Shown here piece by piece: positions 28,287-33,991 of a stretch of 64,000 nucleotides of DNA. How positions within the stretch are numbered: the first letter of the stretch is position 1; every line of letters begins with the position of its first letter. The notes below the pieces were generated by a model, which was not told where the DNA came from, did not search any database, and saw only the letters and a list, made by a program, of their open reading frames with translations. Position numbers and translations under genes: made by a program. The DNA is from a virus (taxonomy: Duplodnaviria > Caudoviricetes): IMG/VR virus record IMGVR_UViG_2896201746_000001, positions 1-64,000 of that record; one strand, 5' to 3'.

Positions 28287-29030
28287 TTAAAGCGCCCGCT
28301 TCACGAGCGCCAGGCCATAAAACTCACCGAACTGGAAAATCCGCTCGCCGTCGAAGTCGTGCAGGCGCGCCAGTTCCAGCACCGCACCCTGATCCGTCGG
28401 CCGCTGCTCGCCGCGCAGCGACAGCTCCTTCGACACGTAGGCGTCGGCCGGCGAGCCGGAGCGCAGCTTGGACGCCAGCAGGGCGGTCTTGGCCGCGGTG
28501 GCGACGGCCGGCACGCCGAGATAGCCCTTGTCGACCAGGATCACCGCGCCGCCCGGCACGACCGCCTCGAACAGCTTGGCGAGGAACTGCTCGCGCTCGC
28601 CCGGCCGCATGAACATCAGCGTCAGGAACAGCACGGCGACGTCAGGGCGCTTGCGGGAATAGTCGACCGTCTCCGCGTCGATCGTCCACAGCTCGCCGGT
28701 GCCGGCCCAGTTCTTCGTCATCTGGTGCGATGGTTCGATCGACACGAACGTCGCGCCCTTGGCCTCGCGGGTGTCGCACAGCAGTTTGGTGATGTTGCCG
28801 GTCGACGCGCCGATGTCGTAGACCACGCCGCGCTGTGGCAGGAAGCTCACGACGAGGTCGCAGACGTAGCGCGACAGGGCGTCGTACCAGGGGAGCTGCT
28901 CGCGCACATGCTGCTCGAACTTGTCGGCGACGGCGTCGGACTTGAAGGACCAGGCCGCCGGCGTCTCGTCGGCCTGGAGCCGGGTGGCGTTCTCGATGAA
29001 CACGTCGTTGGTCAGGTCATGCTCGGGCAT
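28287..29030 (-). CDS. cmoA: CmoA-like (carboxy-SAM synthase family) SAM-dependent enzyme
   Basis: Colinear with E. coli CmoA as recalled: WSF..VADKF..LPWY, VYDIGASTG, VLFLTLMF..ER..L..L...PGGAVILVDK, FQFGEF; R199-equivalent appears to be Glu. Confidence 0.8.
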   Translation of the reverse strand: MPEHDLTNDVFIENATRLQADETPAAWSFKSDAVADKFEQHVREQLPWYDALSRYVCDLVVSFLPQRGVVYDIGASTGNITKLLCDTREAKGATFVSIEPSHQMTKNWAGTGELWTIDAETVDYSRKRPDVAVLFLTLMFMRPGEREQFLAKLFEAVVPGGAVILVDKGYLGVPAVATAAKTALLASKLRSGSPADAYVSKELSLRGEQRPTDQGAVLELARLHDFDGERIFQFGEFYGLALVKRAL

Positions 29031-30184
29031 CAGATCGTCTCCTGCCAGATGCCGCCGGCGAACCGGGCGGTCGCGCGGGGCCGGGGCTTCAGAATCTCGT
29101 CGCGGATGGTGCCGGCGATGGCGGCCATCATCAGGGGCGGCACGGAGCGGCCGACGCGCTCCCAGCGGTGCTTGAACTTGTTGTCGTCGGCGAAGCGGAA
29201 ATCGTCAGGGAAGCTCTGCAGGCGCACAGCCTCCTGGATAGACAGGGTGCGCGGCTCGGCCCAGTGGCACAGGCACGGCACCTTGCCGGTGATCGTCGGG
29301 CAGGGCTGATGGGGCGGCAGCTTGAACCAGTTGAAGCGCGCCTCCTTGCCCGGCTGCGACCAGCCCAGCTTGCGGTAGGCGTAGGTGAAGCAGCCCTGCT
29401 CTTCCAGAACGCTTGCATGTTCCCAGGCCATGCGCGTCCGCGAGCCTTCCTTCAGCCAGTCGCAGTCCTTACTCCCTGGGGGCGGCGAGGGAATGTCGGC
29501 GATGGCTTCGGCGACGCTGACAATCTCGCTGGCCGGCAGCGGACGGGGAAACACCGGGTCGCGCAGCAGATCCTTACGCACGCCGATGAAGATCACGCGC
29601 TCGCGCTTCTGCGGCACGCCCAGGCGATGCGCCTGCACCATCTGCGCCACGACCCGGTAGCCCGGCCCGGCCGCTTCCAGCGCCCGGTGAATCTCGGCGA
29701 AGTAGCCCTTCGCCACGCCCTTGAATAGGCCCGACACGTTCTCGGCGACGAAGGTCTTCGGCTGAAGCCCGCCCAGCATGCGGGTGAACTCGAAGAACAG
29801 GTCGTCGGAGCGCTGGTGATAGGAACCGGAATAGTGGACCTCCTCGCCCCAGGCCTTCTCGCGCAGGCCGGAGGTGGAGAAGGTCTGGCAAGGCGGCGAG
29901 CCGTCCAGCACGTCCAGCTCGCCCACGTCGACGCCGGCCAGCTCCAGCAGCTCTTGCGGCTGCACGGTGCGGATGTCGCGCTCAATGACGGTCGTCGAGG
30001 GGGCGTTGGCGCGGTAGGTCGCCGCGGCCTTGTCGACGAACTCCAGCGCCACCGGCACCTTGTAGCCCGCCATCTTGTAGCCGGTCGAGCTGCCCCCGCC
30101 GCCGGCGAAGGTCGAGATGACCTTCAGCCCGGCCGAGCCTGCCAGCTCGTTGTTGATGACGTCGATGGACGGCACGCGGATCAC
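29030..30184 (-). CDS. C5-cytosine DNA methyltransferase homologue, probable carboxymethyltransferase
   Basis: GTG start after GAAGGAG; motifs FAGGGG, GSPPCQ, ENV, QKRER, RLQSFPD; motif X reads GRSVPP instead of GNSV. Confidence 0.9.
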   Translation of the reverse strand: MIRVPSIDVINNELAGSAGLKVISTFAGGGGSSTGYKMAGYKVPVALEFVDKAAATYRANAPSTTVIERDIRTVQPQELLELAGVDVGELDVLDGSPPCQTFSTSGLREKAWGEEVHYSGSYHQRSDDLFFEFTRMLGGLQPKTFVAENVSGLFKGVAKGYFAEIHRALEAAGPGYRVVAQMVQAHRLGVPQKRERVIFIGVRKDLLRDPVFPRPLPASEIVSVAEAIADIPSPPPGSKDCDWLKEGSRTRMAWEHASVLEEQGCFTYAYRKLGWSQPGKEARFNWFKLPPHQPCPTITGKVPCLCHWAEPRTLSIQEAVRLQSFPDDFRFADDNKFKHRWERVGRSVPPLMMAAIAGTIRDEILKPRPRATARFAGGIWQETI

Positions 30185-30459
30185 TGTGCGCGCTCCTTCG
30201 TACCGCCCTGCATAGCGGCCTTGACCTGCGCGGCGACGGCGCGGGATTCGGCTGCCTGGCGCGCTTTGCGCTCGCGCAGGTACTTGTTGTTCTCCTCCTC
30301 GATGCGGCCCTTGTAGAGCGCCAGCACGTCCTCCAGCAGCTTCGCCTCGTCGCGCCAGAAGATCGCGCGCAGCCAGCCGACGGCCGCCAGTAGCAGCGCG
30401 ACGACGAACGCCGCGGCCAGGATCAGCAGGGGAGTGATTTCGGGGATGAACTCGAACAT
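30181..30459 (-). CDS. Small N-terminally anchored membrane/coiled-coil protein
   Basis: 92 aa, one TM helix then coiled coil; overlaps both neighbours. Confidence 0.7.
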   Translation of the reverse strand: MFEFIPEITPLLILAAAFVVALLLAAVGWLRAIFWRDEAKLLEDVLALYKGRIEEENNKYLRERKARQAAESRAVAAQVKAAMQGGTKERAQ

Positions 30460-31385
30460 CAGGATCTCCGAACGGCAAGATCGAGAAGCCGGCGCACGAA
30501 GCCCTGCGGCTCATGGAGGGTCTTGCCGGTCTCGTCGGTGTAGAGGGAGCGGTCGTTCAGTACGGGCTGGGTGTTGATCTCTAGGAAGCGCGCCCGGCCG
30601 CCGCTGACCATGAAGTCGCTGCGCGAGATGTCGCGGCACCCGATCGCCCGGTGCATGCGCAGCGCCGCCGCGCGCATCGCCAGCGCCAGTTCCGCCGGCA
30701 GGTCGGCCGGGACGCGGGTGAAGCTGCCGTACCAGTCCAGCTTGCACTCGTAGCTGTAGAAGCTGTGGCCCTCGGCCAGCTCGCTTTCCGAGACGGCCAT
30801 CGCCCGGTCCTCCAGCACCGCGACCGTGAAGTTGCGCGGCGTGTCGGCCATCGCTTCGACCATGACGATCTCGTCTGCCGGGCCGGCGGCGAGCAGGGCG
30901 TCGCGGTCGAGATCGTCGGGCGCGTGACAGATCAGCACGCCCAGGCTCGACCCGCTGTAGACCGGCTTGACGACGCAGGGGAACGGCAACGTCGTCCGGT
31001 GCGCCAGCAGCTCCTCCCGCGAGCCGACATAGAGCGTCGGCAGCACGTCGATGTCATGATCGAGCGCCACGCCCTTCGCGCGCACCTTGTCGAAGGCGAT
31101 GCGCGACGGCAGCGCCGGCGAGTGGGTGTAGGGCACCCCGGCGGCGTCCAGCGCGGCTTGCACCGTGCCGTTCTCGCCCTCGCCGCCGATCGTCGCGTTG
31201 AACACGACGTCGGGCCGGTGCGAGCGGATCGCTTCCACCAGCCCGCCCTCGGCCACCTTGGCAGGGTCGAGCGTCATCAGGCCCAGGTCAGGCTCCAGGC
31301 AGAGCAGCGAATGGACGTAGGAGCCGTTGTCGAAGGAAGGGGCGTATTCCGACGTCCGCCCGCCATAGAGGATCAGGACGCGCAT
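30459..31385 (-). CDS. ATP-grasp ligase, D-Ala-D-Ala ligase-like
   Basis: YGGRTSE, PDVVFN..GGEGENG, GVPYT, DK..AK, VVKP..GSSLGV, YSYECK, SRSDF, LEINTQP; ATG at 31385 overlaps upstream TGA. Confidence 0.88.
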   Translation of the reverse strand: MRVLILYGGRTSEYAPSFDNGSYVHSLLCLEPDLGLMTLDPAKVAEGGLVEAIRSHRPDVVFNATIGGEGENGTVQAALDAAGVPYTHSPALPSRIAFDKVRAKGVALDHDIDVLPTLYVGSREELLAHRTTLPFPCVVKPVYSGSSLGVLICHAPDDLDRDALLAAGPADEIVMVEAMADTPRNFTVAVLEDRAMAVSESELAEGHSFYSYECKLDWYGSFTRVPADLPAELALAMRAAALRMHRAIGCRDISRSDFMVSGGRARFLEINTQPVLNDRSLYTDETGKTLHEPQGFVRRLLDLAVRRS

Positions 31386-33192: not shown

Positions 33193-33308
33193 AGCGGCAC
33201 ACCGAGCAGGCGGGCCATGCCGATCATCAGGCCATCGAGCAACAGCTCGCGATTCCTTGAAGTCATGTAGAGATGAAAGAGAATCGGATGGGTGATGTAG
33301 AGAGGCAT
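33189..33308 (-). CDS. 39-aa small ORF coupled to the cyclodeaminase-like gene
   Basis: MPLYITHPILFHLYMTSRNRELLLDGLMIGMARLLGVPL; ATGA overlap at 33189-33192; fills the only gap in the operon. Confidence 0.4.
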   Translation of the reverse strand: MPLYITHPILFHLYMTSRNRELLLDGLMIGMARLLGVPL

Positions 33309-33322
33309 GGCCGGCCACCCTG

Positions 33323-33991
33323 TCAGTCGTTGAAGCCGAACTTGCAGCGCGGGCAGACGTGCGCGAAGGTCAGGCCGCTCGGATCGAGGGTCTTGAATCT
33401 GTCCGGTTCCTGGGCTTCGCTCTCGTCGTCTTCATCGTCTTCGGCGCTGGCCGGAGCATTGCTCGGCTTGTCGTCGCCGGTGCTCAGCGTGAGCTGGCTG
33501 GTGTCGACGTTGATGAGGTCGATCATCGCCTGCACGCGCTCGGGCGTGTAGGGCAGGCTTTCGACAACGGCGGTCACGCCAAGCTCGTTCGACAGGTCGG
33601 CGACCATCTCGGCCAGCTTGACCGCGTCGAACTCGCCGCGCAGCGTGTTCGCCTTCACCGTGATGAGCTTCGCGTGCTCGTCGGTGATCGGGCCGAGATT
33701 GATGATCGGGATGCGCTTCATCCCGATGTCGAGGGCCTCCTTGTAGCGGTGCTCGCCGTCGACGATCTCCCACAGCGCCTCGGTCGTGCCCTTGCGCGCC
33801 GGCGGCAGCGGACGCACCAGGACCGGCACGATGAAGCCGTCCTTCTCCAGCGCCTTGCGCAGCTTGTCCCGCATGAAGCTGTCCATGCGGTTGGGGTTCC
33901 AGGTGTTCGGCGTCAGGGACGAGATGTCGACCAGCTTGTCGGCGAGGTCGTCGGGGATGGTGATGCCGGCTTCGATGACGGGGTCGCTCAT
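33323..33991 (-). CDS. ParB/Srx-like N-terminal domain protein with C-terminal CxxC
   Basis: PNTWNPNRM, GFIVPVLV, IVDGEHRY; ends HVCPRCKFGF; GAGGAA RBS. Confidence 0.88.
   Translation of the reverse strand: MSDPVIEAGITIPDDLADKLVDISSLTPNTWNPNRMDSFMRDKLRKALEKDGFIVPVLVRPLPPARKGTTEALWEIVDGEHRYKEALDIGMKRIPIINLGPITDEHAKLITVKANTLRGEFDAVKLAEMVADLSNELGVTAVVESLPYTPERVQAMIDLINVDTSQLTLSTGDDKPSNAPASAEDDEDDESEAQEPDRFKTLDPSGLTFAHVCPRCKFGFND

Follow-up and report, generated by a model that had tools for sequence, protein, structure and literature searches.

An operon of eight consecutive minus-strand open reading frames (ORFs) lies at positions 28287-33991 of the stretch studied here (the window), which covers the opening 64 kb of IMG/VR virus record IMGVR_UViG_2896201746_000001 (112,120 bp). 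The operon probably serves to hypermodify DNA cytosines after replication and represents a rare, extended version of the CmoA-CmoX-CmoY type, in which an amine other than glycine would be joined to the base and a Ddl-derived ligase would lengthen the adduct. Judged by their sequences, the three core enzymes, CmoA, CmoX, and CmoY, belong to a known, published system and are not new. What appears to be new is the set of accessories, namely a putative NAD(P) enzyme of the OCD/mu-crystallin fold, which recurs in a few other phages, and a Ddl-like ATP-grasp ligase, which was found together with Cmo genes only here. The record has direct terminal repeats, a G+C content of 64%, and a completeness rated at 100%, and the operon sits in its replication module. 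An earlier note on this stretch had listed the same genes, on the same strand and in the same order: ParB-like, a 39-codon ORF, OCD-like, Asn-synthetase-like ligase, Ddl-like ATP-grasp ligase, a membrane protein of 92 amino acids, a C5-methyltransferase (MTase) homologue, and a CmoA-like protein. In this order, they are as follows.

33323-33991, minus strand: ParB_N protein, 222 amino acids (PF02195, 32.6 bits against a cut-off of 26.3; phrog_723, 3e-24).
33189-33308, minus strand: 39-codon ORF, with its ATG 14 nucleotides past the ParB stop and an ATGA overlap with the OCD-like start.
32290-33192, minus strand: predicted NAD(P) enzyme of the OCD/mu-crystallin fold, 300 amino acids (family profile and fold match).
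31385-32290, minus strand: CmoY-like amide ligase, 301 amino acids (PF00733, 34 bits against a cut-off of 21), with no glutamine amidotransferase (GATase)/glutaminase domain.
30459-31385, minus strand: Ddl-like ATP-grasp ligase, 308 amino acids from the ATG at 31385 (alternative start, GTG at 31388) (PF07478, 3e-29).
30181-30459, minus strand: 92-amino-acid protein with a single N-terminal hydrophobic helix and a charged helical tail, as seen in its sequence.
29030-30184, minus strand: predicted CmoX (C5-MTase homologue), 384 amino acids from a GTG start with AGGAG 8 nucleotides upstream (PF00145, 1.6e-50).
28287-29030, minus strand: CmoA-like carboxy-SAM synthase homologue, 247 amino acids, the final gene of the coupled block (phrog_4752, 5e-37).

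What is known of the core? According to the main text of the paper describing it in Synechococcus phage S-B43 (Yang et al., Nat Commun 2025; PMC12783734), CmoA produces carboxy-S-adenosylmethionine (carboxy-SAM or Cx-SAM), and CmoX, a homologue of C5-MTases, uses it to write 5-carboxymethylcytosine (5cxmC) into double-stranded DNA at GC sites. CmoY, an Asn-synthetase homologue, then joins glycine to 5cxmC in an ATP-dependent reaction, giving 5-glycylcarboxymethylcytosine. CmoX candidates are defined in the same text by an SPPC motif and by Arg350, a motif X residue that binds the Cx-SAM carboxylate and is replaced by Asn in ordinary C5-MTases. Wild-type SpCmoX took only Cx-SAM, and an R350N mutant took neither SAM nor Cx-SAM. 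E. coli, according to the paper, produces Cx-SAM as well. The authors counted 5,615 CmoX, 4,257 CmoA, 2,251 ligase, and 1,660 ParBc sequences in phage contigs and reported ParBc proteins beside many CmoX genes. In their view, several ligase clusters probably use other, unidentified amines, and CmoY variants fused to a glutaminase are predicted to use glutamine-derived ammonia. The earlier note had mentioned a report of phage cytosine carboxymethylation with a simple amide ligase, and this paper is such a report. The core that the note proposed (CmoA, a C5-MTase homologue, and an Asn-synthetase-like ligase acting on DNA cytosine) is a published system, and both CmoX markers are present in the window. 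The note also knew of no description that adds an ATP-grasp and an OCD enzyme, and none came to light. The terms ATP-grasp, cyclodeaminase, crystallin, D-alanine, dehydrogenase, and dipeptide are absent from the main text of PMC12783734, whose supplements with the ligase clusters may bear on this point. Literature searches found no paper linking DNA hypermodification, ATP-grasp, and phage and no second paper on CmoX/CmoY or the carboxy-SAM system.

The MTase homologue at 29030-30184 is a CmoX, that is, a predicted DNA cytosine C5-carboxymethyltransferase. Its best PDB match is SpCmoX (8YF3, 5e-64), and the next, 3G7U, follows at 6e-22. Its LDGSPPC aligns with the LDGSPPC of SpCmoX, and in the HMMER alignment to 8YF3, ERVGRSVPP lies opposite ERVGRMVPP with an Arg at the R350 position. 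This Arg is invariant in an alignment of five sequences, and 3G7U has GNSV at the equivalent site. A census in IMG/VR covered the best 80 of at least 553 CmoX loci, and several of these 80 are short contigs. CmoA-like homologues stand beside CmoX in 76 of these 80 loci; the other four (L029, L062, L072, and L096) have no CmoA-like ORF in the available flanks, and some of these absences may reflect contig ends. The best PDB matches of the CmoA-like protein of the window are all CmoA (4GEK, 4IWN, and 1IM8), and CmoA is also its best match in NCBIfam. It is 22% identical to SpCmoA and 41% identical to the CmoX neighbour in Moraxella phage Mcat8. Across 82 CmoX-linked homologues, including the assayed SpCmoA, 27 positions are conserved at 85% or more, and the protein agrees with the majority at 26 of them; on this comparison, it is assigned to the CmoX-linked phage CmoA group. 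The third core enzyme, the CmoY-like ligase, has an SGGIDS PP-loop and aligns over its full length with SpCmoY (26% identity over 281 amino acids, E value 3e-27). ParB-like matches occur in 14 of the 80 CmoX loci.

The first of the accessories, the OCD-like gene, is not confined to this operon. Pattern scans recovered its relatives on eight further contigs, and in four contig lineages the gene lies beside Cmo genes, which supports the involvement of an OCD enzyme that the earlier note had proposed.

L005/L006: ParB..CmoX-OCD-CmoY-CmoA, two IMG/VR contigs with a shared arrangement.
L061: ParB-CmoX-OCD-CmoY-CmoA, then terminase.
L011: OCD, spermidine-synthase-like (SpeE-like), exonuclease, CmoY, CmoX; a metagenome contig.
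L012: OCD-CmoA.

In the genome studied here, in L006, and in L061, the OCD-like gene comes directly before the ligase gene. The ligases themselves are also related, that of the window being 42% and 39% identical to those of L006 and L011, respectively. The four OCD-linked ligases group together in a tree of 37 CmoY-like proteins, as a single clade with support of 100/99 on a long stem of 1.25. SpCmoY falls outside it, as do the glutaminase-fused ligases of the census loci (L018-L097), of which there are 10 among the 37 rows, 460 to 620 amino acids long and in a separate clade of their own. That a distinct ligase clade has a dedicated amino-acid enzyme encoded immediately before it most likely reflects a different amine substrate, and the amine here would probably not be the glycine of S-B43. 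The OCD-like enzyme is, as far as gene neighbourhoods and the tree indicate, a recurring and undescribed partner of this CmoY clade.

The lineage of L011 merits a closer description. Between the OCD-like gene and CmoY/CmoX, at 2816-4467 of that contig, lie a spermidine/spermine-synthase-like gene (PF01564, 1.8e-24) and a gene for an RNase_T-type exonuclease. Judged by its family, the former would also extend amines, and it occupies the accessory slot of this Cmo cassette. L011 and L012 come from one metagenome, and on each contig a YhgA-like (Transposase_31/DUF4351) gene comes first, ahead of the cassette (L011:3-917 and L012:464-1441), so that these cassettes may belong to a cellular genome or a mobile element and not to a lytic phage.

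What kind of enzyme is the OCD-like protein? Taken as a single sequence, it scores 18.5 bits against PF02423, below the cut-off of 24, but its family can be extended. An exhaustive HMMER search of 1.84 billion proteins found 111 representatives with E values of 1e-3 or lower and no named member among them, and a family profile built from 41 members matches PDB 8J1C at 2.8e-10. No paper that mentions this PDB entry turned up. An AlphaFold2 model (mean predicted local distance difference test score [pLDDT] of 93.7) matches OCD/mu-crystallin structures over its full length with a Foldseek probability of 1.0 and template modelling (TM) scores of 0.65 to 0.71. The matches include 8J1C, 3HDJ, CmnK, mu-crystallin, Pyr2C reductase, BhcD, lysine cyclodeaminase, and SbnB, and the ESM Atlas agrees with this fold match. 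The assignment to the OCD/mu-crystallin superfamily, which rests on profile and model, is firm. As to the reaction, cyclodeaminases, imine reductases, amino acid dehydrogenases, and structures that form L-2,3-diaminopropionate (L-Dap) all score alike as fold matches. Four residues, K57, R94, G121, and G123, are invariant in the 41-member alignment. G121 and G123 belong to the NAD(P) Rossmann motif, R94 is part of a TxxR stretch, and HMMER aligns the K57 and R94 stretches with 8J1C and mu-crystallin. The Lys and Arg at these two positions are ones that we take to bind the substrate carboxylate in OCD-family enzymes, and their invariance points to an alpha-amino, imino, or keto acid as the substrate. 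No match to the protein was found in 50,697 GenBank phage records, and the IMG/VR scans with single proteins gave no close relatives of the accessory proteins.

The second accessory, the Ddl-like ligase, is 36 to 43% identical to Ddl proteins, and the named matches among those listed are alphaproteobacterial (Acidocella, Amaricoccus, Aureimonas, Rhodopila, and Maricaulaceae), which suggests the host group. Its gene matches the rest of the phage in G+C content at third codon positions (GC3, 0.92). The curated Ddl models score the protein below their cut-offs (NF002378, 186.1 bits against 243; TIGR01205, 164.3 against 245.65). Residues were compared in an alignment with its 119 best matches, using E. 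coli DdlB numbering. The equivalents of Glu15, Lys144, Ser150, Lys215, Arg255, Asp257, Glu270, Asn272, and Ser281/Leu282 are kept, positions that we take to be catalytic or ATP binding, and the protein thus has the Lys, Arg, Asp, Glu, and Asn expected of an ATP-grasp enzyme. The substrate pocket is another matter. The equivalents of His63, Tyr216, Gly276, and Thr278, which are His, Tyr, Gly, and Thr in all 118 bacterial Ddl matches, are Ile, Leu, Val, and Asn here. The same four positions are replaced, by Val, Thr, Val, and Lys, in the closest homologue, P0002 (43% identity), which lies on a 6,065-bp contig. Because these invariant positions are replaced in both proteins, the ligase is best described as a member of a small, putatively neofunctionalised Ddl lineage and not as an ordinary D-Ala-D-Ala ligase. 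That it acts in DNA modification is given a likelihood of somewhat under one half. The argument for such a role is made by the position of the gene between the ligase and CmoX genes, its overlapping junctions, and its altered pocket, and the parallel of L011 also helps.

Where would the substrates come from? Self-supply of D-Ala, prephenate, or L-Dap by the phage was considered and rejected, as the 112-kb genome has no alanine racemase, no CM_2 chorismate mutase, no class IV aminotransferase or D-aminotransferase, and no PALP enzyme, a partner of the SbnA type included. Since the phage lacks a racemase and a D-aminotransferase, any D-Ala would be host derived, and since it lacks a chorismate mutase, so would prephenate.

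Put together, the proposed pathway would run as follows. The first three steps are modelled on assayed homologues. CmoA (28287-29030) would convert SAM and host prephenate to carboxy-SAM, CmoX (29030-30184) would place the carboxymethyl group on C5 of cytosine in double-stranded phage DNA, and the CmoY-like ligase (31385-32290) would adenylate the carboxylate and join an amine to it as an amide. The amine would not be glycine but an alpha-amino or imino acid that the OCD-like enzyme either makes from a host metabolite or tailors after ligation. In this phage only, the Ddl-derived ligase, with its ATP and acyl-phosphate machinery kept, would add a further unit. It could do so in one of two ways, by transferring a small amino acid (D-Ala, for example), activated as an acyl-phosphate, to a free amine on the side chain already attached to the DNA or by preparing beforehand a dipeptide-like amine that CmoY would use. 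The cytosine would end up with a bulky, peptide-like adduct, and this adduct would block restriction and similar nucleases. The most specific version of this scheme, in which the 5cxmC amide of an OCD-made nonstandard amino acid is lengthened on the DNA by the Ddl-derived ligase, probably with D-alanine, is a speculation and rather unlikely as it stands. To our knowledge, and within the literature searched, neither the action of an ATP-grasp enzyme on a DNA base adduct nor a D-amino acid as a constituent of DNA has been reported.

Several observations weigh against the extended pathway or some part of it. The CmoA-like protein scores only 43.6 bits against TIGR00740, which has a cut-off of 193, and the match spans residues 27-168 only. 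The OCD-like gene occurs in just one of the 80 CmoX loci (L061), making it a rare addition, and on three of the eight OCD contigs (L007, L009, and L010), it lies in a bacterial-looking context with no Cmo genes, so the family is not dedicated to DNA modification. No fusion of OCD to ligase was seen among proteins of 526 to 2,000 amino acids, which is weak evidence. No Ddl-like ORF was found in any of the 80 CmoX loci, no Cmo or OCD genes were found in any of 80 genomic Ddl-like loci, and Cmo genes are missing from both of the two weak viral Ddl-like loci. The 19 GenBank "phage" records that match the Ddl-like protein are mostly unannotated fragments or bacterial-looking, and none is a known Cmo-bearing phage. 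The gene is also absent from the three other OCD-bearing Cmo loci that have enough flank to judge. The earlier note had made co-occurrence of the five enzymes one of its checks, and the outcome is split, with the OCD-like gene recurring in four other lineages and the Ddl-like gene found with Cmo genes nowhere but in its own operon, a result that the note itself had named as telling against its proposal. Its picture of an OCD/ATP-grasp pair that supplies a dipeptide likewise finds no support outside this one operon. Its overall reading is partly supported, in the core and the OCD involvement but not in the co-occurrence of the ATP-grasp enzyme or in the dipeptide-supplying pair.

Operon coupling has to be weighed in the same light. 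As the earlier note had observed, stop and start codons overlap at every junction from the 39-codon ORF onward, six in all: ATGA, TGATG, TGATG (or GTGA), TGATG, GTGA, and TGATG. A crude genome-wide count found such overlaps at 21 of 97 adjacent same-strand pairs, 3 of them inside the operon. The run of six is unusual, though not unique in kind, and because such overlaps occur often in this phage, coupling taken by itself argues only weakly for a shared function and belongs with the points that weigh against the scheme.

What, then, are the alternatives? The Cmo core and the OCD-like enzyme might act on DNA while the Ddl-like ligase and the 92-amino-acid protein are cell-envelope passengers that share the transcript. 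They might, for example, change the D-Ala-D-X terminus of peptidoglycan precursors in the manner of Van ligases or disturb cell wall synthesis during infection. This is possible, if doubtful. In its favor are the restriction of the Ddl-Cmo combination to this operon, the descent of the ligase from a housekeeping alphaproteobacterial Ddl, to judge from the 36 to 43% identity, the membrane protein gene that follows it, the frequency of overlapping junctions in the genome, and the other OCD-bearing Cmo loci, which do without a Ddl-like gene. Against it, the gene lies between the ligase and CmoX genes with stop/start overlaps on both sides, and the replacement of pocket positions that are invariant in 118 of 118 Ddls, the Gly276 and Tyr216 equivalents among them, argues against ordinary dipeptide synthesis. 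The SpeE-like gene between OCD and CmoY in L011 also shows that accessory amine chemistry beside CmoY has a parallel, and the 92-amino-acid protein is unlike the genes that flank bacterial ddl in 80 loci.

A different role for the OCD-like enzyme, considered unlikely, is one in which it does not supply the amine. CmoY would first attach the residue to DNA, and the OCD-like enzyme would then modify it there, for example by oxidising, reducing, or cyclising a tethered diamino acid with NAD(P), after which the Ddl-like ligase would act on the modified product. The constant place of the gene right before the ligase gene in this genome, L006, and L061 would suit such a role, as would the imine chemistry that OCD-family enzymes perform on alpha-amino acids that carry another amine (such as ornithine, lysine, and L-Dap precursors), structures of this sort being among the fold matches. 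Against it, all solved relatives act on free small molecules, to go by their structure titles, and bacterial members of the OCD-like family occur without any DNA-modification genes. Finally, the core itself might be misread, the MTase being an ordinary 5-methylcytosine enzyme and the CmoA-like protein an unrelated SAM-dependent methyltransferase, so that no carboxymethyl handle is made and the ligases act off DNA. The low TIGR00740 score of the CmoA-like protein is the point in favor, yet this explanation is very improbable. The motif X Arg and the SPPC motif fit the published definition of CmoX, no other solved relative comes within 42 orders of magnitude of SpCmoX in E value, a CmoA-like gene flanks nearly all such MTases in the census, and the CmoA-like protein departs from the majority residue of the CmoX-linked group at only one of the conserved positions. 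The cofactor assays on wild-type and R350N SpCmoX, as given in the main text of PMC12783734, speak against it as well.

How does the operon compare with known systems? It shares three enzyme families and a ParB-type neighbour with S-B43; the two CmoX proteins are 38.7% identical, both with SPPC and the R350-equivalent Arg, and neither ligase has a glutaminase domain. It differs from S-B43 in the clade of its ligase, which is OCD linked, in having a Ddl-derived ligase and the 92-amino-acid membrane protein between the ligase and CmoX, and in its gene order. Streptomyces phage TurkishDelight has ParB, CmoX (42% identical), ligase, and CmoA-like genes in one block (gp122 to gp125), but its ligase is about 470 amino acids long, carries an amidotransferase domain, and belongs to a separate clade, and it has no OCD-like or ATP-grasp gene. 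The cassettes of L005/L006, L061, L011, and L012 resemble the operon in having an OCD-like gene with Cmo genes, in L006 and L061 directly before a ligase of the same CmoY clade. None of them has a Ddl-like gene or the 92-amino-acid protein, and in L005/L006 and L061, the order is ParB-CmoX-OCD-CmoY-CmoA. With Ddl proteins (PDB 8EVX, 4EG0, and 2DLN) and Van-type D-Ala-D-Lac/D-Ser ligases, the ATP-grasp ligase shares the full-length Ddl architecture and the Lys, Arg, Asp, Glu, Asn, and Ser-Leu residues, whereas it falls below the NCBIfam Ddl cut-off, has the four pocket replacements, and is encoded inside a DNA-modification operon. The OCD-like enzyme, for its part, has the fold, the Rossmann Gly motif, and the aligned Lys and Arg stretches of its superfamily (the amino acid dehydrogenase 8J1C, the L-Dap-forming enzymes CmnK and SbnB, lysine/ornithine cyclodeaminases, Pyr2C reductase, and BhcD), but at 13 to 20% identity it forms a small family of its own with the additional invariant residues K26, R222, and D283.

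Why would such an operon matter? The pathway was shown only in December 2025, and in the main text of PMC12783734, the glycine amide is the sole known end product. The operon offers a concrete case in which a distinct ligase clade, a dedicated OCD-fold enzyme, and a remodelled Ddl come together. If the accessories act in the pathway, its end product would be an undescribed DNA base, perhaps the first with a peptide extension, with a bearing on the evasion of restriction and CRISPR nucleases and with new enzymes for site-specific DNA functionalisation. If the peptide reading in particular is true, the variable gene beside CmoY (OCD, SpeE-like, or Ddl-like) would mark a modular diversification of phage cytosine adducts. 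Should the accessories have no part in the pathway, the operon would be just another example of a known system.

Two of the small genes remain to be described. GC3 lies between 0.89 and 0.93 in all operon genes except the 39-codon ORF and fits coding. In that ORF it is 0.70, and because of this difference from its neighbours (about 0.9), its coding status is doubtful and it may be no gene. Since CmoX precedes the OCD-like gene in L006 and L061, there is no ParB-to-OCD slot in those loci. The gene for the 92-amino-acid protein has a GC3 of 0.89 and overlaps its neighbours by TGATG and GTGA, and no Pfam or PHROG family matched its product. The idea that it is a remnant of ftsQ, which follows ddl in bacteria, was rejected after tblastn found no match in 80 bacterial Ddl-like loci with 8-kb flanks.

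The bacterial-looking contigs with OCD-like genes encode family members that are 38 to 39% identical to that of the window. At 2258-8180 of L007, the gene adjoins those for a porin, an amino-acid binding protein, a sodium:dicarboxylate symporter, and a SET-domain protein, a context that may hint at the native substrate of the family. A P-type ATPase gene lies near the OCD-like gene in L009, and acyltransferase and histidine kinase genes lie near it in L010.

As for the surroundings of the operon, a scan for promoters and terminators found no clear minus-strand promoter for it and no terminator within it, and megablast of the 24 kb around it against phages returned a single trivial match of 157 bp. 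A helicase gene (34155-36035) is transcribed divergently from it. Right after the CmoA stop, an AT-rich stretch at 28254-28286 with an 8-nucleotide inverted repeat (TTTAATAT ... ATATTAAA) stands out in this genome of 64% G+C. It is the sole gap in the otherwise overlapping gene run and may serve in regulation or processing. The same strand continues downstream, at 25660-28253, with three small ORFs (112, 102, and 100 amino acids; no Pfam family) and a gene for an ATP-dependent DNA ligase (463 amino acids, weak Pfam matches); in L006, a DNA ligase gene likewise lies a few kb past the Cmo cassette. Just ahead of the minus-strand block, at 22685-24691, are genes for a PhoH-like ATPase (PF02562, 2.6e-55) and an HTH_3 regulator, and the G+C content falls to 0.60 around 24 to 26 kb of the window.

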